Source: Mobula hypostoma (Eukaryota). From it: DNA of 64,000 bases. This document shows positions 7,682 through 59,229 of the stretch, piece by piece. The stretch is from contig NC_086108.1 in NCBI RefSeq assembly GCF_963921235.1, forward strand, positions 54,934,001 to 54,998,000, in the 5' to 3' direction. The translations under genes were made by a program, and so were the position numbers. The stretch's first letter is position 1. Every line of letters begins with the position of its first letter. The notes beneath the pieces are model-generated. The model was not told where the DNA came from, made no database searches, and worked only from the letters and a program-made list of their open reading frames with translations.

Positions 7682-8766
7682 TGTCATGAGGGAGGGGTGC
7701 TGGGACCGGACCAAAATGCAAGACACAGACACTGAGGTACAAGGAACAGGACTAGGTGTGTCAAGAAAGCCAGGAAAGTGGGGAAGAAATGACGCTGGAC
7801 ATGACACAGGCCCTGGATGAGACAAGGATTCAGGATCTGGGCTAGGGCTTGGACTAGAGACACGGGACCTGCATGTGGAACTAGGAGCGGGGAGCCTGGA
7901 CTAGGACCCTGTGCCAAAGACTGGACAGGGGCCCAGAACCTGGGTCTTGACTCAGCTCAGGACCCAGATTTAGGTGAGGACAAGACGTGGCTACAGGATG
8001 AGATGAAAGACTCCTGGACAGGATGAGGGGGCTTCAGCCCAGGACGAGGGATCTCCAGCACCAGGCTGGGTGAGGTACTCCTGGGCTGGGCAAGGCACAA
8101 GGACAGGACAAAGCCTAGACTTGGTCGAGGGAGACAGGAATGCAGAGCACAGAGCCTTGGTCTTGGGAGACGGGAACGCAGAACACAGAGCCTCGGTGGT
8201 CTTGGGAGATGGGGACATGGAACACAAAGCCAGGACTCCTCCTTGGGAACAGGCCCTAGGGCCAGGACTCATACACGGAATGCTGAACTGAACATGACAG
8301 TTCCCAACACAAGGTAGCGGCAAACAGCCAGACCTACCTAGTGAAGACATGGACACAGAGACAGTTCCCAACACAAGTTGGCGGCAAACAGCCAGACCTA
8401 ACTAGCAAAGGCTTAGACACAGAGGCAGTTCCAAACAGCAAAAAGACAGTTCCTTATCTAGACACAGCAAGGCTCCGGACTTGCTCTGGTAGTAGAACTT
8501 GACAGCAAGCATAGGCGAGGACGCAGACAAGGCTTCAGGCAAAAGGTAGCAGGCGAAGCTTCAGCCAAGGGAAGGGAGGAGAAGGGAAGGGAACAGTCCA
8601 GCACTGAAGCTCAACCCAGGAGCTGTTTATGTAGCCAGCCCAAAATGAGAATCATGTGCCTCAATTAAGGCACCAACAGAACAAGGAAAAGTTGGAAAAC
8701 CTGGAATAAGGATCGATGGACTGGTCCGTGAACCAGAATGGGGACTTCACGGACCAGACCATGACA
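7682..8766 (-). mobile_element. Solo LTR (~1.08 kb), family A
   Basis: TGTCATG...CATGACA termini; reverse-complement homologue of 9025-10207. Flanks TGGAC/CAGAC are consistent with a CpG-decayed CGGAC 5-bp TSD. Strand is inferred. Confidence 0.75.
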
Positions 8767-9470
8767 CAGACAGGCTAAGACTGACTTTTCAAATAGTGGA
8801 TGTTTTCTCCTCCAATAGTTTCTAAGGGTTGTTGGCATTTATTGTTACATAGACATGATTAATTTTCACTTTAAGGAGAAAATATTTGTGATTATCAAAT
8901 AGAGTGAAAGATTGTTGTGGTGAACAGAGAGCACATTACCCTTAAGTAATGATGGTTTAAGCAACTGCATGGTGGGTTGATGTTTCTTCATTACTTCAAA
9001 TTACACCTTAGTTATGTTTATATCTGTCATGGACCGGTCCATGAAGTCCATATTCTGGTTCACGGTCTGGTCCATAGTTCCTTATTCCAGGGTTTCTGGT
9101 TTTCCCCCGTTTCTGTTGTAGGCACATGATTCTCGTTTTGGGGCTGAGACATAAACACCTCTGCAAACCAGGGATTCTCTGCTGGACTGTCTGTTCCCCT
9201 CTTTGTCTTTCCCCCCTCGCCTGACTCTCTGCCTGCTCACCTAGCCTGGATACCCCACCTGTATCGCTGAAGTTTTACTGCTGGAGCAAGACCAGAGCCT
9301 TGTTAGGTCAAGATAAGGAACTGTCTTTCGTTGTGTGGAATCGTCTCTCTGTGTCCACGCCTTTGCTACGTAGGTCCGGCCGTTTGCCGCTACCTTGTGT
9401 TGGGATCTGTCTCTTCATGTTCAGCATTCTGTGTATGAGTCCCGGCCCTATGTCCTGTTCCCAAGGAGGG

Positions 9471-9594
9471 GTCCCGTCTCTTCTAGTCCAAGGCTCCGTG
9501 CTCCCGTCTCTTCTAGTCCAAGACTCTGTGCTCCCGTCTCTTCTAGTCCAAGACTCCATGCTCCCGTCTCTTCTAGTCCAAGGCTCCATGCTCC
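9471..9594 (+). repeat. 30-bp minisatellite x4 inside the LTR
   Basis: Unit ctcccgtctcttctagtccaag(g/a)ctc(c/t)(g/a)tg repeated four times. Confidence 0.9.
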
Positions 9595-9800
9595 TGAAGG
9601 CCCTCATCCGGTCCGTGCCTAGTCCAGTCCTATCCGAGTCTTGTCCATGTGCCTTTACCTGTCCTTGTGTCTCGCCCTACCCAGGAGTGCCTCACCCAAG
9701 CCATGTCCAGTCCTGTAGCCTCGTCTTGTCCTCACCTAGTTCTGGAGTCCGAGCCCCAGGTTTTGGGTCCTTGCCCAGTCTCTGGCTTGGAGTCCATACC

Positions 9801-9956
9801 CAAGCCTCGAAGTACCCAAGACCCAAGACCCCAAGCCTCAAGCCTCAAGACCCCAAGCCAGTCTCCAAGCCTCAAGCCTCAACCCCCCAAGCCTGTCTCC
9901 AAGCCTCAAGCCTCAAGCCTCAAGACCCTAAGCCTCAAGCCTCTAAACCCCAGCCT
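9801..9956 (+). repeat. Degenerate 7-bp tandem array (caagcct/caagacc) inside the LTR
   Basis: Repeats visible directly in the sequence. Confidence 0.85.
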
Positions 9957-10889
9957 CCAGTCCTGCAGTCATGTCATGTCCTTGCCTGGTTCTGGAGCCC
10001 GAGCCCGAGGCAAGAGCCAGGTTCTGGGTCCTTGTCCAGTCTCTGGCTCAGGGTTCAAGCCCAGGCTCCTAGTTTATAGTTCCTTGTTCGGTTTCCCTGT
10101 TTCTTGTCCATGTCCTTGCCCAGGTCCTGCATCCTTGTCCTGTTCTCAGTACTTCAGTGCCTGTGTCTTGCACTTGGGTCCGTTTCCCAATGTCCCCCAT
10201 TGTGACAATATCACATGCTTACTGAGAAGCAGCAGTGACTTAAAATATATAAAAGCTTTTTGTAAAATGATTACATTCTGTATTTAGAACGTAGTATAAA
10301 TCACTTAGCCAATGCCATGAGCGTCTCATGTTTCTGCCAAGTCTGTTTCTCCAAACAGTAAAGAAACTTGTCTTGATATTGCTGTTTACATGTTATTCTC
10401 TTACTCGCCCTCGGCCACTGAGATGGGCATCAGAATATCGATTGCTGTTAAATGTGATAGATGAGGGCTTGAGGAGGGCTCACAGGGTTAATTGGAATGA
10501 TGAGGCTCAATTGAATGGCGCTGTGTTCTCTGGAATGTGGAAGAGATAATTAGTTTCGCACAACCTTGAATTTCATTTCAGAGCCTGGTTTGCTGGTCTC
10601 TTTATTTTGTTAGGCCAGTGCCTCTCATGCACTTTTCTGGATCCAGGTAACTTAACCTTACAAGCATACATCACACTGGGATTATTTTGAGTGCTTTTAA
10701 AATGTAAGCTTTAGCATTAATTTTTTTTTTAGATTTGCTCAGCCAACATATCTGACCACATGGATATACTGTACTTAATAGACATTAATTGAAAAGGTAC
10801 TCTGGAATGAATGTTCTGCAACACATTTTTAGAACCTTCTTTTAGATTTCAGTTCGTTCACATTTATTTTAGCATCTTTAGTCTTCTAT

Positions 10890-11932
10890 CACAGACACAA
10901 GAGAAACTGCAGATTCTGGAAATCTTGAGCAACGCACAAAATTGCTGGAGGAACTCAGCAGGTCAGGCAGCATCTATAGAGGGAAATAAACTACTGAGGT
11001 TTTGGTCCGTGACCCTTCATTAGGACTGGATAGGAAGCGGCAGAAGCCACAATAAGGTGGGGGGAGGGGGAGTACAAGGCAGCAGGTGTTAGATGAGACC
11101 ATCCCTCCCTGCTGGTCTGTTCTGGCACTTAACCCTGCAAATGGGACAAGTGCTACATCTGCCCATAAACCTCCTCCCTGATCACCATTCAGAGCCCCAA
11201 ACAGTCCCTCCAGGAGAGGCAACGCTTCACCTGTGAGCCTGTCAGTCACCTATTGTATCCAGTGCTCCTGTGCGGACTCCTCTGTCAGTGAGACCCAATG
11301 TAGGTTGGGAGCGAATTTGCGCTGTCTATCAGAAACTGCAGGATTTCAATTTGACTTCCCATTCTCATGCTGACATGTCTGTCTATGTCCACTGCCATGA
11401 TGAGGCCAAACTCAGGTTGGAAGAGAAACACATGATATTCCATACCTGTAGCTTCCAATCTGATGGCATAAGCATCAATTTCTCGAACTTCTAGTAGCTT
11501 CTCCCTGCCTCCCCCCCACCCATTGCTTTCTTTCTCAATTCCCCATTCTGGTTACCCTCTCTGCCCTTTTCTTCTCCTCCCCCACTCTCATGAACTGCAC
11601 ATCACCTCTCTCTGGTTCCTTCCTACTTCCCTTCAGTCCTTGGTCAATTTTCCTCTCCTATTAAATTTCTCCTTCAGCCCTTTACCTCTTACACCTATCA
11701 CCTCCCAGTTTCTTTACTTCACCCCCCTCTTCCACCCACCCACCTTCCCCCTCACCTGGTCTCACCTATCCATCTGCTAGCTTGTACTCGACCACCCCCA
11801 TCCCATATTTTAATTCTGGCTTCTCTCCCTTCCTTTCCAATTCTGATGAAGAACTTTGGCCTGAAACCTCAACTGTTTATTTTCTTCCATGGATGCTTCA
11901 TGACCTGCCAAGTTCCTCCAGCATTGTGTGTT
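10890..11932 (+). mobile_element. Penelope-like element 3' fragment with inverted terminal repeats
   Basis: GIY-YIG C-terminal remnant (RLEEKHMIFHTCSFQSDGISINFSNF). An inverted repeat copy on the left (gctggaggaactcagcagg) and a direct copy on the right both carry degenerate hammerhead cores. Confidence 0.75.
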
Positions 11933-12154
11933 TATTGGTCTTTTATCAGATTTGCTAAATCGGTCATATTTAGATCATAAGCATATGAGCAGAATTAGGT
12001 CATTTGAGCCACTAAGTCTGCTCCACCAATTGGTAATGGCTGATTTAATCTCAATCATATTCTCCTGCCTTATAACTATATAACCATATAACAATTACAG
12101 CACGGAAACAGGCCATCTCAGCCCTTCTAGTCCGTGCCGAACTCTTACTCTCAC

Positions 12155-14920
12155 CTAGTCCCACCGACCTGCACTCAGCCCATAACCCTCCATTCCTTTC
12201 CTGTCCGTATATCTATCCAATTTAACTTTAAATGACAATATTGAACCTGCCTCAACCACTTCTGCTGGAAGCTCGTTCCACACAGCTACCACCCTCTGAG
12301 TAAAGAAGTTCCCCCTCATGTTATCCTCAAACTTTTGCCCTTTAGCTCTCAACTCATATCCTCTTGTTTGAATCTCCCCTACTCTCAATGGAAAAAAGCC
12401 TGTTCACGTCAACTCTATCTATCCCCCTCATAATTTTAAATACCTCTATCAAGTCCCCCCTCAACCTTCTATGTTCCAAAGAATAAAGACCCAACTTGTT
12501 CAACCTTTCTCTGTAACTTAGGTAATAAAATGAAGGTAACATTCCAGTAAATCTTCTCTGTACTCTCTCTATTTTGTTGACATCTTTCCTATAATTCGGT
12601 GACCAGAACTGTACATAGTACTCCAAATTTGGCCTCACCAATGCCTTGTACCATTTCAACATTACATCCCAACTCCTGTACTCAATGCTCTGATTATAAA
12701 GGCCAGCATACCAAAAGCTTTCTTCACCACCCTATCCACATGAGATTCCACCTTCAGGGAACTATGCACCATTATTCCTATATCCCTCTGTTCTACTGCA
12801 TTCTTCAATGTCCTACCATTTACTATGTATATCCTATTTTGATCAGTCCTACTAAAATGTAGCACCTCACATTTTTCAGCATTAAACTCCATCTGCCATC
12901 TTTCAGCCCACTCTTCTAACTGGCCTAAATCTCCCTGCAAGCTTTGAAAACCTACTTCATTGTCCACAGCTCCACCTATCTTAGTATCATCTGTATACTC
13001 ACTCATCCAATTTACCACCCCATCATCCAGATCGTTAATGTATATGACAAATAACATTGGACCCAGTACAGATCCCTGAGGCACACCACTAGTCACCGGC
13101 CTCCAATCTGACAAACAGATATCCACCACCACTCTCTGGCATCTCCCATCCAGCCAATGCTGAATCCATTTTACTACTTCAATATTAATACCTAATGACT
13201 GAACCTTCCTAACCAACCTTCTGTGTGGGACCTTGTCAAAGGCCTTACTGAAGTCCATATAGACAACATCTACCGCTTTACCCTCGTCAACTTTCCTAGT
13301 AACCTCTTCAAAAAATTCAGTAAGATTTGTCAAACATGACCTACCATGCACAAATCCATGTTGACTGTTCCTAAGCAGACCCTGTCTATCCAGATAATTA
13401 TATATACCATCCCTAAGAATACTTTCCATCAATTTACCCACTACTGATGTCAAACTCGCAGGCCGATAATTTCTAGGTTTCCTCTTAGGACCCTTTTTAA
13501 ACAATGGAACAACATAAGCAATATGCCAATCCTCCAGCACTATCCCCGTTTCTAATGATATTTGACATATTTCTGTCAGAGCCCCTGCTATTTCCACACT
13601 AACTTCCCTCAAGGTCCCAGGGAATATCCTGTCAAAACCTGGAGACTTATCCAATTTTATATTCCTTAAAAGCTCCAGTACTTCCTCTTCTTTAATCATC
13701 ATAGTTTCCATAACTTCCCTGCCTGTTTCCCTTATCTTACACAATTCAATATCCTTCTCCTTAGTGAATACCAAAAAAAAGAAATTGTTCAGAATCTCCC
13801 CAATCTCTTTTGGCTCCATACATAGCTGTCCACTCTGATTCTCAAAGGGACCAATTTTATCCCTCACTATCCTTTTGCTATTAATATAACGGTAGAAACC
13901 CTTGGGATTTATTTTCACCTTACTTGCCAAAGCAACCTCATATCTTCTTTTAGCTTTTCTAATTTCTTTCTTAAGATTCTTTTTACATACTTTATATTCC
14001 TCAAGCACCTCAGTTATTCCATGCTGCCTATATTTATTGTAGATATCTCTCTTTTTCCGAACCAATTTTCCAATATCCCTTGAAAACCATGGCTCTCTCA
14101 AACTTTTAACCTTTCCTTTCAACCTAACAGGAACATAAAGATTCTGTACTCTCAAAATTTCACCTTTAAATGACCTCCATTTCTCTATTACATCCTTCCC
14201 ATAAAACAAATTGCCCCAATCCACTCCTTCTAAATCCTTTCGCATCTCCTCAAAGTTAGACTTTCTCCAATCAAAAATCTCAACCCTGGGTCCAGACCTA
14301 TCCTTCTCCATAATTATATTGAAACTAATAGCATTGTGATCACTGGACCCGAAGTGCTCCCCAACACAATCCTCTGTCACCTGACCTATCTTATTCCCTA
14401 ACAGGAGATCCAACACTGTCCCTTCTCTAGTTGCTACCTCTATGTATTGCTGCAAAAAACTATCCTGCACACATTTTACAAACTCCAAACCATCCAGCCC
14501 TTTTACAGAATGGGTTTTCCGGTCTATGTGTGGAAAATTAGAATCTCCCACAATCACAACCTTGTGCTTACTACAAATATCTGCTATCTCCTTACAAATT
14601 TGCTCCTCCAATTCTCGCTCCCCATTTGGTGGTCTATAATACACCCCCATAAGTGTTACTACACCTTTCCCATTCCTCAATTCCACCCAAATAGCCTCCC
14701 TAGACAAGCCCTCTAATCTATCCTGCCAGAGCACCGCTGTAATATTCTCTCTGACAAGCAATGCAACACCTCCCCCTCTTGTCCCTCCGATTCTATCACA
14801 CCTGAAGCAATTAAATCCAGGAATATTTAGTTGCCAATCACACCCCTCCTGTAACCATGTTTCACTAATAGCTACCACATCATACTTCCAGGTATCAATC
14901 CATGCTTTAAGCTCATCCAC
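12155..14920 (-). pseudogene. CR1 ORF2 (AP endonuclease + reverse transcriptase), frameshifted near 12660 and 12380
   Basis: 752-aa ORF with ISETW, GVYYRPP, GDSNFP, SDH (APE) and DFSKAFDKV, GVPQGSVLGP, YTDD (RT; normally F/YADD). C-terminus continues in ORFs 12354-12662 and 12155-12388. Confidence 0.9.
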
Positions 14921-15082
14921 CTTTCTTATAATGCTCCTGGCATTAAAACAAATTCATTTAAGAAATTTTCCACCTTATACACTCTGCTTATCACTAACAG
15001 TGCAAACAACTTTACTATTTTATTTTTCTTCCTTCTTCCCTACATCTGTTCCTACACGCTTGTTCCCCTCCCCCCCCCGTAT

Positions 15083-16010
15083 CTAGTTTAAATCCACCGA
15101 AGCCTCTAGAGCAAACCTACCTGCAAGAATATTTGTCCCCCTCCAGTTCAGATGTAGACCGTCCTGCTGGAACAGATCCCACGTTCCCTGGAAAATTGCC
15201 CAATTATCTATAAATCTGAAGCCCTCCCTCCTGCACCATGTCTTCAGCCACTTGTTGATCTGTGCTATCTTACTATTTCTAAACCTACCTGCATGTGGCA
15301 CTGGTAGCAATCCTGAGACTGCTATCCTGCAGGTCCTGTCCTTTAATTTGGTGCCTAACTCCCTAAACTGACCTTTCAGAACCTCTTCACTCTTCCTACC
15401 CACGTCATTGGTCCCTACATGAACCACGACATCCAGCTGCTCACCCTCCCTCTTGAGGATACTGAGAACTCGATCCGAGATATCACGGACCTTGGCACCA
15501 GGGAGGGAACAGACCATCCGAGATTCTCCATTTCTTCCACAGAACTTCTTATCTGTTCCCTTAACTATTGAATCCCCTATCACTACTGCTCTCCTCTTTT
15601 CCCTCCTTCCCTTCTGAGTTGAGGGTCCCATGTTGGTGCCCGAGACTCAACCACTGCAACTTGTCCCTGGTAGGTCATCCTCATCAACAGTATCCAAAAC
15701 AATGTATTATTGGTGGGAACAGCCACAGGGGTGCTCTGCTCATTCTGTCTATTCCCCTTCCTTCTCCTGACAGTCACCCAGCTACCTGTCTCCTGACTCT
15801 TAGGGGTGACAATCTCCCTGTAACTCCCATGTATTTCTGCCTCTGCTTCCAGAATGATCCAAAGTTCATCCAGCTCCAGCTCCAGTTTCCTCACTGGGTT
15901 TGTCAGGAGCTGCAGCTGGATGCTCCTTTCGCAGGTGTAGTTATCAGGGATGATTGTGCTCGCCCTGACTTCCCACATCCTACAAATGGAGCACTCAACT
16001 GCCCTAACTG
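15083..16010 (-). pseudogene. CR1 ORF1 (Zn-finger/coiled-coil + SGNH esterase), one frameshift near 15700
   Basis: ECSIC/YTCER Zn-finger remnant; GDS, GTND and DGLH esterase blocks in ORF 15083-15631. Confidence 0.88.
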
Positions 16011-17779
16011 CTCTTAAGGTAATTAGATTTATTAGAGGAACTTACCCAACTTTACCTCACTTGGAGTGAAGCTCTTCCTCAGCTTCTGCTCGCCGAAGCT
16101 TCTACCAGTAGTTTTTGACACCCAGACTAATAAGGAACCTAGCTACCTCCACTTTAGATATACTCAATGACTAGGCCTCCATAGCCATTACTGGCAATGA
16201 TTTCCACAGATTCACTACCCATTGACTGAAGAAATTTCTCTTTATCTCTGTTCTGAATGTATATCCCTCTGATGTGAGGCTGTGTCCTCTGGTCCTAGAC
16301 TCACTCATTATAGGAAACATCCTCTCGGCATCCACTCTATTTGGCCTTTCAATATTTGATAGGTTACAGTGAGCTCCCTGCTCTCGTTTTTCTCCCTATT
16401 TATAAAATAGTCCACACCTTTATTCCTTCTACCAAAGTGTGTGACCATACACCTTCCTACATTAAATTCCATCAGGCACATCTTTGCCCATTCTTCCAAT
16501 CTTCCCAAGCCTTTCCAAGACTTTGACCTATATTATCATGGTCCTCTAATGCCCTGAAACTTAATCCTTAATAATGGACTCCATCATCTTCCCAGCCACT
16601 GAAGCCAGGCTAACTGGCCTGTAATTTCCTTTCTTTTGCCTCCCTCTCTTCTTAAAGAATGGAGTGACATTTACAATTTTCCAATCCTCCAGAATCATTT
16701 GAGAATTTAGTGATTCTTGAAAGATCATTATTAATGTCTCCATGATCTCTTCAGCTACCTTCTTCAGAACACTGAGGTGTAGTCCATCTGGTCCAGGTGA
16801 CCCATCTACCTTCAGACCTCTCAGTTTCCCAAGCACCTTTTCCTTCGTAATGTCAACTACACTAACATCTGTCCTTTGACACTTCCGAATTTCAAGAATA
16901 ATGTTTGTAATTTCCATCGTGAAGAGAGTCACAAAATACTTATTAAGTTCATCTCTCATTTCTTTGTCCCTGTTACTACCTCTCCAGCATCTCGTTCCAG
17001 CTGTCTGATATCTACTCTCCTTTCTTTTTTACTCTTTATATATCTGGAAAAAAACTTGATATCATTCTTTTACATTATTGGGTAGCTTGCTTTCATATTT
17101 CATCTCTTCCCTCCTTATGGCTTTTTTAGTTGCCTTCTGTTGGTTGTTAGATGCTTCCCAATCTTTTAATTTCCCACTAATGTTTGCTATATTATATGCA
17201 CTCTCTTTTGCTTTTATGCTGTCTTTGACTTTTCCTTGTCAGCCATGGTTGCCTCATCCTATCTTAAGTATGCTTCTTTATCTTTAGGGTGTACTTATTC
17301 TGCACCTTTCAAATTACCTATAGAAATTCCAGCCTTTGCTGTTCTGCCATTATGCCTGCTAGTGTCCCCTTCTAATCAACTTTGGCCAGCTCTACTCTTG
17401 TGCCTTTGTAATTCCCTTTACTCCACTGTAATACCAATACATCTGACTTTATCCTCTCTCTCTGAAAATGCAAGGTGTATTCTATCATATTATGATCACT
17501 GCCTCCCAAGGGTTCCTTTACCTTAAACCTCCTATCAAATCTGGTTCATTACACGACAGCCAATCCAAAATTGCCTTTCTCCTAGTGGGCTCAATCACAC
17601 TGCTGTAAAAAGCTATCTTTTAGGCATTCTGCAAATTCCCTCCCTTGGGATCTAGCACCAACCTAATTTTCCAGGTCTATCGGCATATTGAAATCCCCCA
17701 TGACTATCGTAACATTGCCAGTTTTACAAACCTTTTTTAGTTCCCATTATAATTTGTAGCCCACATTCAGGCTATTGTT

Positions 17780-18042
17780 AACACAAAATAATCTGCAGAT
17801 GCTGGGGTCAAAGCAGCACTCACAATACGCTGGAGGAACTCAATAGGTCGGGCAGCATCTGTGGAGACGATCAGTCAACGTTTCGGGCCGGAACCCTTCG
17901 TCAGGACTGAAAAGAGAAGGTGCCGGGCTGCCCCTTCCCTCTTCAGTCCTGACGAATGGTTCCGGCCCAAAACATTGACTGATCGTTTCCACAGATGCTG
18001 CCCGACCTGCTGAGTTCCTCCAGCGTGTTGTGAGTGTTGTTT
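17780..18042. mobile_element. Penelope-derived non-coding foldback mini-element
   Basis: ~108-bp inverted arms with a ~12-nt loop; 11-bp TSD AGGCTATTGTT (17769-17779, 18043-18053). Confidence 0.85.
17871..17910 (-). ncRNA. Minimal type I hammerhead ribozyme motif
   Basis: UCAGUC-CUGACGA-AGGGUUCCGGCCC-GAAAC-GUU-GACUGA: 6-bp stem I, intact core, palindromic ACGU stem III. Confidence 0.75.
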
Positions 18043-20933
18043 AGGCTATTGTTGGAGGCCTGTACATAACTCCCAACAGGGTCTTTTTACCCTTGCAGTT
18101 TCTTCATTCTACCCGCAAGGATTCCACATCTTCTGATCCTATGTCATCTCTTTCTAAGGATTTGATTTTATTTTTCACTGAAAGCCACTGCACCCCCTCT
18201 GCCTACCTGTCTGTCCTTTTGATACAATGTGTATCCTTGGGTGCTAAGCTCCCAACTATGATCTTCTTTCAACCACGGCTCAGTGATGCCCACAATGTTG
18301 TACTTGCCAATCTCTAACTATGTTACAATATCATTGACCTTATTCCGTACATTGCGTACATTCAAATATAACTCCTTCGGTCCCATATTCATCAGCATTT
18401 TTGATTTTGCCCCCACGTTGCACTTCAACCCATCCCACTGACTGCAAGTTTGCCCTATCATGTGCCTGTCCTTCCTTACAGACTTACCCACAAGGATATT
18501 GATCATCCTCGGGTTCAGCTATAACCCACCCTTTTTGCACAGGTCGTACTTGCCTCAGAAGAGATCGCAAACAGTCTGAAATCTGAAATCCTGTCCCTTG
18601 CACTACTTCCTCGACCATACATCATCTGCCAAGTCATCCTATTCTCACCTCTGCTAGCACATGGCACCAGCAGCAATCCAGAGATGACTAAACCTGGGGG
18701 TGCTGCTTTCCAGTTTTCTACCTAACTCCCTATATTCTCTTTTCTACTTATGTCATTACTACCAACATGTACCATGACTTTTGGCTGCTCGCTCCAGCAC
18801 CCTTAGAATACTGTGGACCCAATCCAAAATATCCCTGACCCTGCATCTGTGATGCAAAATACCGTCCGAGTGACTTTTTCACATCCACAGAATCTCCTGT
18901 TTGCTTCTCTAACTGAGGGAAGGGTGATATCTCTCTTCCAAATGAACATGATATGAATTTTATTTCTTCAGAACTATTTCTAATCTATCTGGAATTCAAA
19001 AGCAACAGAAGTTATTGGTTTAATACCCTGCTCTCGTCCAACACTACATCACTCTGCTTCTCTTTCCTTCCCTTCTGAGCCACAGAGCCAGACTCGCTGC
19101 CGAAGACCCTATTGCAGCGCTTCCTCTGATAGATCATATCCAAAGTGGTATACTTAATTTCGAGGGGAATAGCCACAGGGTACTCTGGACTGGCTGCCTA
19201 TTTCCTTACCTTCCCTGGCAGTCACCCACGTATCTGCCTCCGGAAGCTTCGGGGTGACTGCCTCTCTGTAGCTCCTATCCTCACCTTCTCATTTTCTCTT
19301 ATGACCTGAAGGTCATCGAGCTGCAGCTCCAGTTCCTTAACACAGTCTCTAATGAGCTGCATCTAGATGCACTTTGTGCAGGTGTAGTTATCAGGGAAAC
19401 TGGAGGTCTCTCAGAGTCCTGACATCGCAGACGAAGAACATACCATTAACTCAGGACCCATTCTCCATGCACTGTGTAACAATAGATGGTGGGGGGGAAG
19501 AAAATGTACTTGAATTTTACTTTGAACCTCCATCTGTGCTGCCTAAGCCTGTTCTCGCTAAAGCCTCCCTCTCTACCACTGTCCCATTCCAACAATGACC
19601 GCTCTGCTTTCACCTCCCTTCTTTTTATTGGCTCAAATAAAACTCTCTCCCAAGTGAAGGAGGTTAAAATGAGTCAAATCTTGTGAATTGAATTTTACTA
19701 TTTGTGAGTCAGGCTTAGGTGTATTTATGATCTGTAAATTCTTAAATATAATCAACCTTTGTTAATAAATGCATCCCATCTGCCCATCATGAACATTCTT
19801 CTTACACTTGTTACCCTTCCCACCTCCCTGTCTTTATGCCATGCTCCCCATTTTCTCCTGTCAGATTTCAACATTGTCAGCACTTTGTTGCTTCTACCTG
19901 GCCCTCCCAAGTTCTGGCATCATTCTCATTTTCTCCCGTCCCCGTCTGTTCACCACCCATGCTCCTAATCCAGATCCAACTATCACCTCCCAACTCTTGA
20001 TCCATGCCTTCACCTTATATACTGGCTATCTACCCTCTGCCTTTCACTCCAAATGACCCTAAACATTGTCCATTTCCCCCCACAAGTGCTGCCTGATCCA
20101 CTGAGTTCGTTTTGTGTTGCCCCAGATTCCAGCATCTGCAGTCTCGTGTCTCCATTGATCCTAACCTGTTCCTTTTCAAAAATAGTTTCCTCACTCCCAG
20201 TGTTTTTGGAGGTAGGTTGTTTGTTAATCTTTTTGGACCAAGAAAAGTAATGGATACAATGGATAAAAGTCATTGGGTATATTTAAGGCAGAGCTTTATA
20301 GATTTGTGATTAGTTAGGGCATGACAGGATATAGGGAGAAAATGGGAGATTGAGGCTGAGAGGGAAATGGATCTGCCATGATAAAATGGTGGAACAGACT
20401 CAAAGGGCCAAATGGCCTAATCCTGCTCTTATATCTTATGGTTTTATGGATTTATGGATATTGATTTTCATGAAAGAATTACCATGGAGCTATATTTCAA
20501 TCAAAATAGAAATTTAAGAAGATGCCCATCAAAAGTAGAAAGCTTTGCCCTGGTCTAATAAGAAGTATTCTGAACTGTATTCACCAAGATAATGAAAATA
20601 CAACAACTCTGCCTATTAAGTAAGAATCAGATACATCATGTGCTTAGTCAGGAACATGAAACACCTAGAATACTGGAGACTGTTTGTTGCAATAGATTTT
20701 GAGTGAACTGTAAGGTGTCTTCATCATTGCTCCGTACATTAACAGAAGCATATTTGATGTTAGACTTTCATCATATCAGTCATGTTACTCCCTTAGGGGA
20801 AGGTGATTGATGTCACCAGCAGATGCCCTTTGTGCACATGTTAGCATTGTACTGTATATGAGTGAAATTTTATAACTTCATTGGAGATGGTTCCCACTGA
20901 GGGAATCCAGCTAATGGTGGAAATAGGAAGTTA

Positions 20934-23780: not shown

Positions 23781-24487
23781 TATTGATAGATCTTTTTTTG
23801 TTGTATTCATCCCTCCATAATCTTCTCTGTGATTTAAAAAAATGGCACTTTATCTCTCTTTCCAACTTTTGATAAAGGATCTGAAAAATATGAAATGTCA
23901 ATCCTGTTACTTTTTTCATAAATGCTGCCTCATCTGTTAAGTGTTTCTAAAATGTTCTGCTTTTACTTCGCATTTCCAGCATTTGCATTGTATTGTATTT
24001 TGTTTAATGATGTTTGGTTGCTCTGAAGCAATTACCGTTCTCTTGAAGTATAGGGGCAGTTATGATATGGGAAACACCATGGCCAGGTTGTGCTCAGCAC
24101 AGTCTCACAAACAGCAGTGGGTCTTTGAAAAATAAATATTACATTTATAAACAACATATTGGATTTTTAATAGTAAGAAGAGGAGTATAAAAGCTAGGAT
24201 GATATGGTAAACAGGATATGATATGAAAGGTTTTGGCCTGAAATGTCAACTGTACTTTTTTCCATAGATGTTGCCTGGCCTGGTGAGTTCCTCCAGCATT
24301 TTGTGTGTGTTGCTCGGATTTCCAGCATCTACAGATTATCTTTTGTTGATGATATGGTAAATCTTTCTAAGCACTGGTTAAGTCTAAATTGTATTCAATT
24401 GTGAACATCACAGTTTTGGAAAGAAGGATGTCAAAGACTGGGAGAAGGAACAGAGAGGATTTACTATATGGTATCAGGGTATGAAAT

Positions 24488-30949: not shown

Positions 30950-32166
30950 CTCTGTGGGTGTAGGGCAAAAGTACCGGCTGACAAGGGGCTGGAAACATTG
31001 GAAAAGTTCAATAAGTATGAATACTCCTGTGATGACTATAGCATTATGTAGCAGTACACTGCTCCATCCTGCGAAGATGCCGCTGACCGCTACATTCCTC
31101 CTTTTGAGCTAAAGCCATGTAGGTTGGCCCTGATTTTCCGGATTTTATTTACATCGTTTTGAATGTGAACAAAGAGAGAGGTAATGTTCTCTGATTCATC
31201 TGGGATGTAGGTGCAGCACTCTTGTCCTATAATGGCACATGCACCTCCTTTTTCAGCCAGAACAAAATCGAGGGCCATTCGGTTCTGCAGAACCATCTTG
31301 CGTAGCGCCATTGCCATCATTTCAGTGGTGATGGCCCTCACCTGATGCTGGACACCATTCATGGCCTTAGCGGTACTATTGGCCATCTCCTCCAAAACTG
31401 GGGCCAGGTTAATGATTTCTCTTGAATTGCAGCCGCCCCATAGGAGGGGAAAGCTGTCATCCAGAAGCGCTCCAGTTGTGAGATTCCTCGCTTTTGCTGT
31501 AGGAGGGAAAGGTGCTGGTCCAAGGTTTTCAGCATTCGCGTGTGGGATACAAGGTAAGCAAGGAAGCAGCATCCCATCCAATTCTTCTCTCTTGTTGCGT
31601 GTTCCATCGGCTAGCTGTCTCTCCTGGGAGCCATAAGTAGGCCCTTTCCCCATAAACCCATTAAGTTCTGTTCAGGGGGTGTGGTGATCTGGCCCTTGTA
31701 TAAATGGCATGGGTGTATTGCCCAGAAAGTAAATCCCCTTACCTTTGAAATTACAGTAGCAGATAGTATTCGTTGGTTGGACAGATCTGACAATGGTGGA
31801 GGGCCATGATGTCTGACCTCCCCATCAGATGGCTTTTTTTCTGGAGGGGATGGGGAAACAAATGTACCAATCATCAAAGCAGTGGCATTCACAGTCTCCC
31901 ATCGCATCACCGGTGCAATTTCGGGCCTCTCTAGTCTGAGTGTCATTAGAAAAGGCCCAGACTGACCATTGTTCACTGCTGTTCAGCCAAATGGCTATTA
32001 GGGGAATCCTTATATTCCCATGGGGAGGAATCACTGCACACACCCAGCAGGCAGATGAGTTAGTTTTCCCAGCATAACCATAGCAAAGCAACAGGAAGCT
32101 GTTTAGCTTGGCTACTACAATACAAGTGCTTAAGATTAGAAGTATAGACAGTAATAGCTTAGTCAT
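30950..32166 (-). pseudogene. env: ERV env, gamma-type, frameshifted
   Basis: Signal peptide MTKLLLSILLIL, SU CWVC, QQKR|GISQLERFWMTAFPSYG cleavage/fusion region, ISD LQNRMALDFVLAEKGG, CX6CC (CAIIGQECC), hydrophobic anchor near 31000-31060. Confidence 0.9.
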
Positions 32167-33406
32167 GAATGCACACGTTTGATGTGTCCTAGATATGTCT
32201 ATTTTGGAAGTCCTTGTACTGCCTTTGGAGTGGTCAGTAACACTTGGTGGGGTCCTTTCCAGTGAGGGTCAAGCCTCTTTCTAAGATGGTTCTTTACAAG
32301 AACGAAGTCTCCTGGGTGAACTCGATGTTCATCTTCCAGTTCCTCTCCTTCTCGGTGGGCCTTCTTCACCTGTGAATGCAAGACCTGGAGAGATTTGGTT
32401 AGTGCCAGGGTATAACCTATAATTTCATTCAACATTTGATTCAGGTCCATCTCAGGTAATTTTCGGGTCGGCAAACCAGCCTTCCAGGGGATTCTTACAG
32501 TCTGCCATATACTATTTTGGCTGCCGACAGACCATGTTTGTTCTGATAATGAGTTCTCATCTGGAACAAGACTATCGGCAGCACTTTGAGCTAATTTTGA
32601 CTGATTTCTTGTCCTAGTTTAGCCAATTTGTTTTTCAGTGTCCCATTAGCCCTTTCAATTAGGCCAACAGCCTGCGGTGTGCGGGGGCAATGGAATGTCT
32701 GTTTAATACCCAGAGCCTGGCATAGTTGGCGATTAATCTCACCCACAAAATGAGGGCCATTGTCAGAAACAACTTGCTCCAGTACCCCAAATCTGGGAAT
32801 GATTTCTTTCAACAAAATACGCACCACGGTATCGGCTTTGTTACCTGTGGTGGGATATGCTTCAATCCATCTACTAAAAACATCAAGAATTACAAAACCG
32901 TACTTATAGGTGTGGTAATTCGATAAAATCGAGTTGTAGTTGGCAGAAAGGGTGTCTTAGCAACGGGGCATATCCCTTTGGGCATGAGTTGCCTTTTCCT
33001 GGATTATGTTCTTGGCATATCAGACATCGTCTAGCAACATTCTCTACTACCTTCTTCAGGTCCCGGCTCCACACATTGCCTTACCATTCCCTCCTTGCCA
33101 AGGTGAGTTCTGGTTTGTACAAAATCTACAATATGGCCCAGTATAGTTTCGGCACGTAGACCTGACGGGCAGGAGTAAGCCCGAGGCCCTCGGACGGTGG
33201 GTAAAAACATCCAGCCGATTCCCAGGTGGCTTTCTATTTTCCAGAGGTGTCCCTCTGTAAAACACGCTCATCCTTAATTCCAGGCACACCCTTTGATTTG
33301 GAAACGGGGGATTCATTTTTACCCCGGCGATTCGTCATTTGGGGAACAATCAGTGCTCTAGTAAGGGCAGCTTGTTTCACAGCCGAGTCAGTTCTGTTGT
33401 TTCCAC

Positions 33407-49625: not shown

Positions 49626-50499
49626 GGTCACTAGGTGTCACAAAATCAAATTCTGTTGTCTCTAAGTTAAATTTCGCTACAAAGGTTCAATTGAATTGAA
49701 TCAAAGATTTATTATCCAAAGAAAATAAATCTAATTCTCTTGTAAGTAATCCAGAATTTAAGAAATCTAATCTTTCAGCAAAGTTCCACAGCATTATTTT
49801 TCCCATAACTTAAATTCCTGATTCCTAAACCATCTTCTTGGGTTGTTTCTTTACCTTGAAATAAGACTATGAAAAAGAATACTTTTTAAAATTTACATTT
49901 GCAACTGGTTCTATATATGATTCGATTCTAAATTTTTTCTGTTTCCCAGTTTTTTGTGGATTGACTTCAGTGGACTTGTGTCTAAATGTAACACAGTTTT
50001 ACTGATTTATGAAATAACCTGCTGTGAATAGCCAGTTGTATTTGAGCTCTGTTTCCTCTGAAAGTTGGTACAATAAGTGATAAATCGTGATGAGTTACGC
50101 ACAGTTACAGCAGAATATGTCAGTGCTACAAGGGTTTTGTAGTTCACTGAAGCTTGAGCTTATGAATAACTTGTTTTAAGAAACTTTGTCTGAAAATATG
50201 TCAGTTAGGAAGTTGGAGGTTACTTGGATTAATTTGTTATCTTTACCTTTTTGTGCCGTGTGATTCAGACTTGGTGTGTATGAAGCTTGTCGAGGCAGAG
50301 CAATGTTGTGTTAATGATGTCAATGACATGGTGTGTTGTGGTGCAGTGCAGTATATGATCGTCCTCTTTAGCCAGTGGTCCCCAACCTCCGGGCCGTGGA
50401 CCGATACATTGCCGCGAAGAATACAGCGGTACAACAGTAGCCAGAACACACCCAGCACATATTTAAGAAAAAGGCCGAAATAAACAAGCTAATTAATTA

Positions 50500-50977
50500 C
50501 CTTATATTCCATCTGGGTAGCCTCCAACCTGATGGCATGAACATTGACTTCTCTAACTTCCATTAATGCCCCACCTCTCCTTCGTACCCCATCCCTTATT
50601 TATTTTTTATTATTATGATTTTTTTCTTTTCCCTTTTTTTCTCTCTTTTTTCTCCCTCTGTCCCTCTCACATCCTTTCCCATCCTCTGGGTTCCCCCCTC
50701 CCCCTTTCTCTCTCCCTAGGCCTCCTGTCCCATGATCCTCTCCCTTCTCCAGCCTTGTATCCCTTTTGCCAATCAACTTTCCAGCTCTTAGCACCATCCC
50801 TCCCCCCTTGTCTTCTCCTATCACTTTGAATCTCCCCTTCCCCTCCCACTTTCAAATCTCTTACTATCTCTTCTTTCTGTTAGTCCTGACGAAGGATCTC
50901 GACCTGAAACGTCAACTGTACCTCTTCCTATAGATGCTGCCTGGCCTGCTGCGATCACCAGCGTTTTTTATGTGTGT
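50500..50977 (+). mobile_element. Penelope 3' end
   Basis: LIFHLGSLQPDGMNIDFSNF C-terminus, pyrimidine-rich UTR, terminal repeat; TSD TAATTAATTA (50490-50499, 50978-50987). Confidence 0.85.
50881..50918 (+). ncRNA. Minimal hammerhead ribozyme motif
   Basis: UAGUC-CUGACGA-AGGAUCUCGACCU-GAAAC-GUC-AACUG: intact core and GUC triplet; one stem I mismatch. Confidence 0.7.
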
Positions 50978-53109
50978 TAATTAATTAGGTGCTGCCCAGC
51001 ATGTAAATGTTGGCCCAGATCAGGTTGCGTCGCCTCTGATCTGGGCCGACATTTACGTGCCAGGCGGCACCTAATTTATTAGCTTGTTTATTTCGGCTTT
51101 TTTTCTTAAATACATGCTGGGTGCATTCCAACTACTGCTGCACCATTGCATTCTTCGCGGCAATGTATCGGTCCGCGGCCCGGAGGTTGGGGACCACTGT
51201 CTTTACCTAATAGTGCTTGTAGTCAGAAACAATCTGGTAGAATGGCAACTCTTTTATAAATGATTCAATAAATAAATGCTGCTTGGAAGGCTGCTTGAAA
51301 ACTCATGGTATTCTGCCTGACAGGCACAGATCTTTAGACTGCAAATATAAATGGGTATATTTTTATGAATAGTGGAAGACTGAATGATGCTGATATTCAG
51401 ATGTCCTTGTGCACAAATCACTAAGTTTACATGCTGGGTCTGCAAACAATTCAGAAGGCAAATAAGATGTAAGAGGATTTGCATATCAGAATTGAGGACT
51501 TCTTGGAGTTATGCAAGACCTTTTTGAGTCTGCACTTGGAATGTTCTATACAGATATTGGGGACTAATTGTACGAGGAGAAATTAAATAGACATTGAATC
51601 TAGATTATTTTGCATTTAGAGTTTCTCATTTAAACACACTGAATTATTAAAGGCATGACAGAATTCTCCTGGCTAGAGCTTGTAGAACCAGGGGCCTCAA
51701 TATCAAAATAAGGGCTTGGCAAGTTGGGACTGGGATAAAAAGAAATTTATTTACACAGTATGTAGTGAAATAGGAATTCTCCGTCAGCCAGTGCTGTCAA
51801 AGGATCAAATGGCCTGTTCTGCTTCTGTTTCTGAAATTCTCAGCGAGCTGATCAAAAGGCAAAGAGAAAGGTATTCTTGTTCACTTAAATTTAATGTTTC
51901 TTTTAACAAATCAATTTTTTTTTTCATTGTAAAATTATTTCAAAGTTTAAAAGCTCCTATCAGGTTTGTTTTGTTTTGGTCAGTACCTCTGCAATCAGCT
52001 TTTCTTCACTGGTCCATGTTGCTGAATTCTAGTGGTGGAAACACAATCTGCTTCAGGCCCAGATGGGTGTAGCACTGCTTCAGGGTGTTCCAGTATGATC
52101 CAGCCTATTAAGTGCACCAAGCAATACGATTGCTAAATGTTTCACATCAGGTATAAACACAGGGCGAGCTTAGTAATATACAATTGCCACAGGTTCCCCC
52201 AAATCATTTACCTCAATGTTCCACTTCCACAGGCAGTCTTTCCCAATATACTTGTGCTGAAAAAAATAATTTTAATTTCAGTATTGAATGCTGTGTCAAT
52301 CAATATTAGTTATGTAATCAACATTGATTTTTAGTTCATTGAAATCCACATGTACCACTGAAGGAACCCGTGATCCCATATCCATTGAGTTTCTAGTTGA
52401 ACCATGTTTCTATGGAGGTATTATTGCTTGCTTGCTTTGCATGATGAATGATGGCCAGGTTCCAAGTTACTTGATTGCTAAAATGCGGGAAGAGTTAGAA
52501 AACAAAACATTTACATCAGTGCTACACACTACATTCAGATTGGTTCTCAGTTGAAGCTCTGCCATTAATAATGGAGAGATAAGGTTCACGTAGTCTCTGA
52601 GATTTACTGCCTACATGTTCATTCGTTATGTGCCTTGTCATATGAAGTGAGTGATCTTGGTCTTTCCATGAACATGACTGGTCTTGGCAAATTAATCTAC
52701 AGAAGTCCCATTGCCTTCTTCTGAGCAGTGTCTTTACAAGATGGGTGACCCTAGCCATTATCAATACTCTTCACAGGTTGTCTACCTGGCATAACCATGA
52801 CTTGTGACATCCACCACCTGCTCCCATGGCTCATATGACCATGATTGAGAGGCTAAGCAAGTGCTACCTCTTGCTCAAGGGTGACCCGTAGGCTAGAGGA
52901 GAGAAGGAACACCTTATACTTTCTTTGATAGACACATACTTCCACTCCGCCATCCAAACTGTCCACTAATATACCATTTAATGCAAAACATAAGATACAT
53001 TATATTACACGGCTTCTTCTGTGAAAATAAAAGTGAAACTGGAAATACATTTGTGTGTCACTTTATACTTGAATTTTGTAAATGCATTTGAAAGGAGAAA
53101 ATTTTATCT

Positions 53110-58224: not shown

Positions 58225-59229
58225 TGACTTCACCCCAGCTTCCTGCCACCCTAACAGAGATAGAGTTCCTCTTGTCTCTATCTTCCTTCCACATGAGCCT
58301 GTGAATCGTGCTCTTCATTGTCTGTGACTTCTGCCATCTTCAACAAGATCCTACCACCAAAAAATGTTTAGCTCCCTCCCCCAACTCTCTAGTTTTCATA
58401 GGGATCGCTCTCTCCATGTTCACCTTGTATATTTGTCCCTCCCCACTACTCTGCTTCCTGGCACTTACCCCTGCAAGTGAAAGAAGTGCTATACCTGTAT
58501 CTATCCGTTCACCTCCTCCCTCCTCCATTCAGGGCCCCAAACAGTCCTTCCAGGTGAGGCAACACTTCAGTTGCAAATCTGTTGGGGTTGTGTATGGTAT
58601 TGAGTGCGTTCGGTGTGGCCTGCTCGACATTGGTGAGACCCAATGTAGATTGGGGGACCGCTTCATCGAGCACCTTCGATCCATCTGCAACAAGCAGGAT
58701 TTGCCGATGGCTAATCATTTTAATTCCAGTCCCCACTCCCATTCCAACATGGCGGTTCATGGCTTCCTCTACTGCTCTGATGAGGCAACTGTCTGGTTGG
58801 AAGAGCAACACCTCATATTCCATATGGGTAGCCTCCAACCTGATGGCATGGGTATTGATTTCTCTAACTTCTGGTAAGTTTTCCCTTTCCTCTTCCATTC
58901 CCTACTCTGGCTCCCCTGTTTTCTCTTTTCTTCTCATCTGCCTATCACCCACCCCCCCCTCCCAGCTGCTCCTCCTCCTTCCTCTTCTCCCATGGACCAC
59001 TCTTCTCACCTCCAGTCCTTTACCTTTTCCACCTATCACCTCACAGCTTTTCACTTCATTCCCCTCCCTCACCCACCAGGCTTCACCTATTACCTTTGAT
59101 CTTGCACTCCTTCCACTCTTCTCACCTTTTTATTCTGGCTGCTTCCCCGTTCCTTTCCAGTTCCCGGCCTGATACATGGACTGTTTATTCCTCTCCATGG
59201 AGGCTGCCTGGCCTGCTGAGTTGCTCCAG

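Follow-up and report, generated by a model that had tools for sequence, protein, structure and literature searches.

A small palindromic insert in Mobula hypostoma that reads as two head-to-head truncated copies of a hammerhead-bearing Penelope-like element

A 263-nt insert within a 64,000-nt stretch of Mobula hypostoma DNA (contig NC_086108.1; hereafter the window) most probably consists of two head-to-head, 5′-truncated copies of the 3′ end of a hammerhead-bearing Penelope-like element (PLE), enclosed by a target site duplication (TSD). The copies were likely joined in one insertion into a CR1-like LINE and have likely been decaying since as an inert fossil. We place the probability of this reading at about 85%; both the order of events and the uniqueness of the junction are what we infer. 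The features, in window coordinates, are as follows.

16398-18365, minus strand: host, a decayed CR1-like LINE ORF2 running from APE endonuclease to reverse transcriptase (RT), assigned by homology.
17769-17779, no strand: left TSD, an exact 11-nt direct repeat (or a 14-nt one starting at 17766, with a single mismatch).
17780-17810, minus strand: PLE 'tail', a 3′ extension that only the left arm has, 31 nt long (34 nt with a 14-nt TSD) and ending at the family's long 3′ end; from end comparison and PMC3846280, PMC8557442 and PMC11167929.
17811-17923, minus strand: left arm, a 5′-truncated copy of the PLE terminal repeat (pLTR) with its sense on the minus strand, from arm and family alignment.
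17872-17909, minus strand: intact minimal type I hammerhead motif, from core and stems with features according to PMC4209133 (stem I 17909-17905/17876-17872, core 17904-17898, extra A 17897, stem II 17896-17885, G12 at 17884, predicted cleavage after 17877).
17924-17929, no strand: head-to-head junction, a loop of 6 nt that lies 14-20 nt upstream of stem I of the hammerhead and is perhaps partly right-arm sequence.
17930-18042, plus strand: right arm, an inverted 5′-truncated pLTR copy with the family's short 3′ end and no tail (reaching only 18039 with a 14-nt TSD).
17944-17981, plus strand: broken hammerhead motif, with G10.1>U (17957), G12>A (17969, CpG) and G16.2>A (17974, CpG).
18043-18053, no strand: right TSD.

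The first-pass annotation of this DNA had described a 263-bp, non-coding unit with an 11-bp TSD, and the exact direct repeat confirms it: the rough probability that an exact 11-mer repeat would fall by chance no more than 5 nt from each end is ~4e-5, and an alternative 14-nt register with one mismatch (17766-79/18040-53) fits equally well. There is no ORF of at least 90 aa over the insert, which is a truncated copy and not an autonomous element with its own RT and endonuclease, and no tandem array is present at the locus. Inverted arms are present as had been proposed, but each is 113 nt long instead of ~108 bp. They are complementary at 101 of 113 positions; both carry independent substitutions, and 10 of their 12 differences are transitions. 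With the window's paralogues as reference, the direction of change was ambiguous for roughly half of these 12 sites.

The palindrome is asymmetric. The left arm is separated from its TSD by 31 nt that have no counterpart on the right, giving a tailed arm of ~144 nt and a tail-less arm of 113 nt. The insert thus lacks terminal inverted repeats adjacent to the TSD at both ends, as the left arm begins 31 nt inside it. The tail of 31 or 34 nt falls within the range of 30-40 bp given for one-sided tails of PLE insertions in PMC8557442, and PMC3846280 describes a 31-bp tail on one side only. This one-sided tail, and 11 further copies of the PLE in the window, had been overlooked in the first-pass annotation.

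Those copies emerged from an nhmmer search with the arm, which yielded 13 matches in the window including the two arms themselves. Four of the 11 have PLE protein remnants upstream on the same strand (tblastn with protein P0001, E 2e-10 to 3e-70), corresponding to the PLE endonuclease region. P0001 is 73% identical to an ORF in the window and carries YIDD, the CxxxxCxxC linker and PF26215; its GIY-YIG match (E 4.6e-4, 20.9 bits) lies below the 22.6 cut-off. The window's stop-free PLE remnants matched no Pfam family. Over the core the two arms are 93% alike, against 58-82% for their likeness to the other copies, which bears out the proposal that both derive from one hammerhead-bearing template. 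By sequence, the arms correspond to the 3′ terminus of a PLE that is abundant; for this stub the link to the PLE ORF is indirect and runs through paralogues of 58-82% likeness, the stub itself being without a coding remnant. The family looks Neptune- or Nematis-like. A 20-nt family motif was also sought elsewhere and found at no locus in viral contigs, at seven loci in metagenomes and at two in prokaryote genomes; all nine of these matches span only 20-25 nt and were dismissed as chance.

Six 3′ ends defined by a TSD, with offsets measured against the left arm as reference, fall into two classes: three lie at the tail end (0, 0 and +2 nt) and three stop short of it, by 31-34, 35 and 38 nt. Two copies of this family are also inserted head to head at 10892-11934. 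That insertion has a tail on one arm and a TSD matching at 12 of 14 positions; its arms are unequal (~210 and ~830 nt) and its junction is unlike that of the 17769-18053 unit.

How the two arms came to be joined may be explained by two-ended priming by the PLE protein, a mechanism we infer and hold to be somewhat better than an even bet. The protein would nick the target on both strands, with 11-14 nt separating the nicks. The first would prime cDNA synthesis at the long start site and give rise to the tailed arm, and the other would prime at the short start site, which lies 31-34 nt further in, to produce the tail-less arm. Both cDNAs would end 14-19 nt upstream of the hammerhead and then be joined end to end. 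The two classes of 3′ end match the anole PLE, for which PMC11167929 describes two RT start sites and cleavage and extension on two strands. The anole mechanism comes from work in vitro on the Poseidon clade, while the family of the stub looks Neptune- or Nematis-like, which counts against transfer of the mechanism. A variant that we regard as possible but rather doubtful is that a single cDNA snapped back and copied itself up to the short end. The starting points of the arms are nearly symmetric, within about 5 nt; this is unexpected from two independent truncations unless there is a preferred stop or a palindromic join, and therefore favours snap-back or a discrete short template.

The first-pass annotation had instead proposed that the unit may be a ribozyme-bearing hairpin family, which our results do not support. 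In one form of this idea a palindromic master would have been copied whole by PLE machinery in trans, and the locus would be one member of a non-autonomous foldback family. The clean TSD around the whole unit would fit, as would the presence of both PLE 3′ ends, which are cis signals, and arms that are 11% apart beside an exact TSD. An exact TSD beside diverged arms is indeed also expected from a re-mobilized older hairpin; the chance of an exact 11-nt TSD at the divergence of the arms (12/113) is ~29%. PLE pLTRs can mobilize unrelated sequence in trans according to PMC3846280, and non-autonomous PLE derivatives exist according to PMC8557442. However, a one-sided tail with an inverted truncated partner is the ordinary PLE signature, and the same anatomy arose anew, with another junction, at 10892-11934. 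The 60-nt junction matches only the locus itself at up to three mismatches in the window, which is a small sample. Among the records listed in one contig comparison (X11), 26 match from 17928 onward and continue upstream into other, non-inverted sequence (agreement 0.82) instead of the inverted arm. With a fold energy near -206 kcal/mol, a 113-bp hairpin would, in addition, presumably be a poor RT template. We thus find it improbable that the palindrome belongs to a MITE-like, non-autonomous PLE family, mobilized as a unit in trans by two outward-facing ends with hammerheads that silence each other in the hairpin.

The insertion site also speaks for the PLE reading. The insertion point lies in the endonuclease domain of the CR1-like LINE, directly after the YRPP motif, and the CR1 endonuclease homology becomes collinear once the insert and one TSD are removed. 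Contigs were compared in four of 24 related runs (X1, X3, X9 and X11) at 85% likeness. CR1-like contigs that bridge the empty site by joining 17766 to 18052 number six in X1, one in X3, one in X9 and none in X11 among the joints listed, and X3 also holds, among those listed, a joint of 17779 to 18056 with three letters between. Because they were taken at 85% likeness, these joints represent paralogous LINE copies and do not prove an orthologous empty allele. One X1 record over 17690-17800, with two differences, hints at a close relative that shares the insertion, with only 21 nt lying inside the insert, below the 31-nt rule. None of the listed pieces and joints in the four runs crosses 17923/17930, an observation that carries no weight as evidence. 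Read depth dips at the bin of the loop; the dip is no measure of copy number.

The arms carry the hammerhead motifs for which the locus was first singled out. A strict hammerhead core pattern has two matches in the window, against 0.03 expected. On the minus-strand arm CUGACGA/GAAAC/GUU is found at 17904-17877, as the first-pass annotation had stated, and this motif conforms to the minimal hammerhead of PLEs: a CUGANGA...GAAA...UH core, an extra base after A9, a G10.1-C11.1 pair and a palindromic 15.2-16.2. The right-arm motif departs from the same pattern, with G10.1, G12 and G16.2 all changed; the annotation had rightly noted the two CpG changes at 17969 and 17974 but missed the third lesion at 17957. 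The hammerhead was recognized by its core and stems and not by an Rfam model: Rfam hammerhead models returned no match at gathering score over the whole window, nor at E<=10 over 17500-18300.

A working, retrozyme-like element that self-cleaves, with one hammerhead per strand, has little to commend it beyond the arm that keeps every core position and is predicted to fold as a minimal hammerhead in isolation, and we would give such an element almost no credence. The fold of the insert has z-scores against shuffles of -23 (plus strand) and -21 (minus strand). With the arm by itself, the hammerhead stems are predicted to pair at 0.97-1.0; this pairing drops to 0.0 in the full or nascent minus-strand transcript, where forcing the hammerhead fold would cost 60.5 and 54.2 kcal/mol, respectively. 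Since the antisense arm is made first in either transcript, the intact hammerhead is predicted to stay unfolded, its motif buried by the hairpin. The two motifs lie ~34 nt apart and pair with each other; being on opposite strands, they cannot form a dimer in cis. Retrozymes, by contrast, need tandem hammerheads on the same strand (PMC7229834; bioRxiv 10.64898/2026.07.22.740005). A single minimal hammerhead gave no cleavage in vitro (PMC4209133), the anole hammerhead required protein (PMC11167929), and the second copy here is without G12.

The same hairpin, very stable on both strands, could be imagined to have been retained as a source of siRNAs or miRNAs that silence the PLE family, as the first-pass annotation had suggested. 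The family to be targeted is abundant, and inverted repeats of Penelope yielded matching siRNAs in transgenic Drosophila melanogaster (PMC3681739). Against such a role, the G-U-tolerant mismatches number five on the plus strand, five on the minus strand and two on neither, without strand bias in this small sample, and derived changes occur on both arms with none compensatory. No Rfam family was matched at gathering score, and the 14 matches to miRNA models at E<=10, all far below that score, reflect the long stem only; the locus, moreover, sits inside a decayed LINE. We therefore judge a retained small-RNA source to be highly improbable. A-to-I editing as the source of the arm differences was rejected, since each of the two arms shows changes in either direction.

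As read here, as a truncated PLE insertion, the unit is a clean small example of a known signature and in itself matters little. It does contribute a data point to the open question of how PLEs build inverted ends, as it has one arm for each known 3′ end class, both stopping 14-19 nt upstream of the hammerhead. If the junction were to prove multi-copy, it would instead mark a foldback retroelement family of which we found no published description in the literature.

MITEs and foldback DNA transposons are likewise short, non-coding elements with long inverted repeats and a TSD. The stub resembles them in these features, but its inverted repeat stops 31 nt before the left end, and its arms are retroelement sequence as opposed to transposase-type terminal repeats. 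Animal non-LTR retrozymes (Cervera and De la Pena, 2020, PMC7229834; Li et al., 2026, bioRxiv 10.64898/2026.07.22.740005) are also small, non-coding, PLE-related and hammerhead-bearing, with a similar unit size; they consist of direct repeats in tandem, and their hammerheads, which share a strand, release monomers and circles, whereas the stub is inverted with one hammerhead per strand. With the minimal type I hammerheads of metazoan PLEs (Cervera and De la Pena, 2014, PMC4209133) the intact motif shares its core, the extra base between 9 and 10.1, G10.1-C11.1, the palindromic 15.2-16.2, the lack of helix III and a stem I of 5-6 bp, and its earlier assignment to this type is upheld. Dual motifs on opposite strands are known from Schistosoma, where they are 100-700 bp apart and stem II has 7-8 bp (PMC4209133), in contrast to the short stem II here of three Watson-Crick pairs plus U-G.

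The closest match is to EN+ PLE insertions with an inverted pLTR (Arkhipova et al., 2013, PMC3846280; Craig et al., 2021, PMC8557442, Fig. 2; Frangieh et al., 2024, PMC11167929), which have in common with the stub the head-to-head 5′-truncated copies, the 31-34-nt tail at one end and the hammerhead in the terminal repeat. The TSD is similar as well, at 8-10 bp in the rotifer PLE paper and 11-14 here. This architecture is already in print, and the stub is probably an ordinary fossil of it. The copies described there are longer and come from rotifers, flies, invertebrates and a lizard, whereas this family belongs to a cartilaginous fish and the stub is far more truncated (~144 + 113 nt, no ORF), so that the whole insert is a near-symmetric palindrome.

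The insert occupies positions 17780-18042 (263 nt) and is flanked by exact 11-nt direct repeats (17769-79 and 18043-53). An alternative target-site duplication (TSD) register of 14 nt with one mismatch fits equally well, a single C>T change being needed with either. The inverted arms (17811-17923 and 17930-18042) are 113 nt each, rather than the ~108 bp noted by the first-pass annotation, and are complementary at 101 of 113 positions around a 6-nt loop. These repeats and this complementarity confirm its description of a 263-bp insert with an 11-bp TSD and two inverted arms. A 9-nt palindrome lies at the junction of the arms (17925-17933), which is 14-19 nt away from hammerhead stem I on its upstream side, and the predicted fold is about -206 to -210 kcal/mol on both strands (z = -21 to -23). 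The annotation overlooked the asymmetry of the palindrome: the left arm carries 31 nt extra before the TSD (34 with the longer TSD), and the right arm has no extension. The minus-strand arm does hold the intact minimal hammerhead that had been described (17909-17872), whose stems I and II have predicted pairing probabilities of 0.97-1.0 when the arm is folded in isolation. The plus-strand copy has the two reported CpG changes, G12 and G16.2, and a third lesion, G10.1>U, that had been missed.

When the left arm was used as an nhmmer query, 13 matches were found in the window, comprising the two arms and 11 further copies. Upstream of one of these copies, a stop-free ORF (58536-58874) is 73% identical to P0001, a Mobula hypostoma protein with PF26215; the search gave three matches among 13 candidates. 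P0001 contains YIDD, a CxxxxCxxC linker and a GIY-YIG region (Pfam E 4.6e-4, slightly under the curated cut-off). A tblastn search placed P0001-like remnants at four positions, each lying 5′ of one of these further copies and sharing its strand, and therefore the arm repeat is, judged from sequence, the 3′ terminus (pLTR) of a Penelope-like element (PLE) of the kind that carries an endonuclease. The zinc-finger-like linker, a clade criterion in PMC8557442, suggests Neptune or Nematis. Likeness over the core is 93% between the two arms versus 58-82% to other window copies, and both arms have two states (17850/18003 and 17860/17993) that are missing from much of the family depth in the run contigs; both derive from a single template.

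On both sides of the insert lies a decayed minus-strand ORF2 of CR1-like type. The window holds a better-kept relative:

12082-16041, minus strand: well-kept CR1-like LINE; ORF1 includes a GDSL esterase domain; ORF2 keeps an open stretch of 763 aa (APE endonuclease and RT)

Compared with this ORF2 (Pfam APE and RT), residues 3-65 lie right of the insert and 122-308 left, and translation over the rejoined site is readable from the YRPP motif onward with a one-base frame shift. Contigs were compared at 85% likeness in four of 24 listed sequencing runs of related DNA (28,564-62,352 contigs per run). Among the joints listed, 17766>18052 joins flank to flank in 6, 1, 1 and 0 contigs of X1, X3, X9 and X11, and a second joint, 17779>18056, occurs in X3 with three letters between. 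At that likeness the joining contigs are paralogous LINE copies, and they suffice to establish the insert as secondary. In X11, 26 of the records listed share the right arm starting from 17928 and run upstream into other sequence (agreement 0.82), as would be expected for a linear parent element. Elsewhere the window carries broken endogenous retrovirus remnants (31093-32956, minus; separate short ORFs match an envelope, an integrase core and an MLV-type integrase C-terminus) and an imperfect inverted repeat of ~2.5 kb (7702-10187) enclosing several tandem arrays.

One-sided extensions are familiar in PLEs. In the account of Arkhipova et al. (PMC3846280), one pLTR of an inverted pair bears a 'characteristic 31-bp extension, or tail', and the standard drawing of Craig et al. 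(PMC8557442) shows an inverted 5′-truncated copy with a one-sided 30-40-bp tail. The anole PLE protein cuts and extends both target strands, and its reverse transcription begins at two sites bounding the tail (Frangieh et al., PMC11167929). Besides the insert, three insertions in the window have TSD-defined ends:

24198-24361 (end at 24347): tailed single-arm PLE stub; exact 14-nt TSD, start close to the hammerhead core
50500-50977: tail-less PLE stub; exact 10-nt AT-only TSD, containing the second of the window's two matches to the strict hammerhead core (50886)
10892-11934 (10878-11948 with TSD): another head-to-head insertion from this family; 12-of-14 TSD, left arm tailed

These four insertions, which take in four of the 11 further copies, supply six 3′ ends. 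Three coincide with the tail end and the rest stop 31-38 nt before it, matching the two published start-site classes. The tail-less stub interrupts a palindromic MITE-like element with inverted ends (50370-51202). The arms of the foldback at 10892-11934 are unequal, measuring about 210 and 830 nt, and the longer contains a GIY-YIG-region remnant; its junction differs from that of the 263-nt insert, and the family therefore builds head-to-head insertions at more than one locus, each with a junction of its own.

The most likely route to the insert, at a probability of about 0.55, is priming from both ends of staggered nicks followed by end joining. Each nick would prime its own cDNA, the two beginning at different start sites; synthesis of both would halt at a point 14-19 nt upstream of stem I, and the free ends would then be joined head to head. 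The near-symmetry of the arms runs against expectation for two free truncations and is better explained if one cDNA snapped back on itself, a self-priming step proposed in PMC3846280 from palindromes at junctions. Snap-back accounts less well for the halt at the short 3′ end, and for the other foldback having arms of unequal length, and we consider it the less likely route; the 9-nt palindrome fits either route. That same near-symmetry, together with a TSD that is exact while the arms differ by 11%, is why we retain, as a very improbable reading, an older hairpin recopied as a unit by a mobilised foldback family. In searches of the open literature (Repbase and most subscription journals being outside this scope) we found neither a mobilised foldback PLE derivative nor a paper on this cartilaginous-fish family.

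Read-through RNA of the insert might be diced, because Penelope inverted repeats can yield siRNAs (PMC3681739), but nothing at the locus suggests selection for small-RNA output. The proposal of a miRNA/siRNA-like hairpin source gained no support at the locus: the 12 arm mismatches show no strand bias (G-U tolerant at five on plus, five on minus and two on neither), derived changes fall on both arms with none compensatory, and Rfam miRNA-model matches at the locus are all sub-threshold.

The head-to-head arrangement means that in either transcript the antisense arm is made ahead of the sense hammerhead. For the full-length minus transcript, and equally for a nascent RNA that stops immediately past stem I, the predicted pairing of the hammerhead stems is 0.0, and forcing them would cost 60.5 and 54.2 kcal/mol respectively. 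Minimal hammerheads are thought to work as dimers, a lone motif showing no cleavage in vitro (PMC4209133). That there was a hammerhead on each strand is true, but this arose as a by-product when a PLE end bearing a hammerhead was inverted. The 263-nt insert is real and is a kind of PLE insertion already known. It differs from retrozymes, which are tandem arrays with hammerheads on the same strand (PMC7229834; bioRxiv 10.64898/2026.07.22.740005), in that its two motifs lie on opposite strands and never occur in one transcript.
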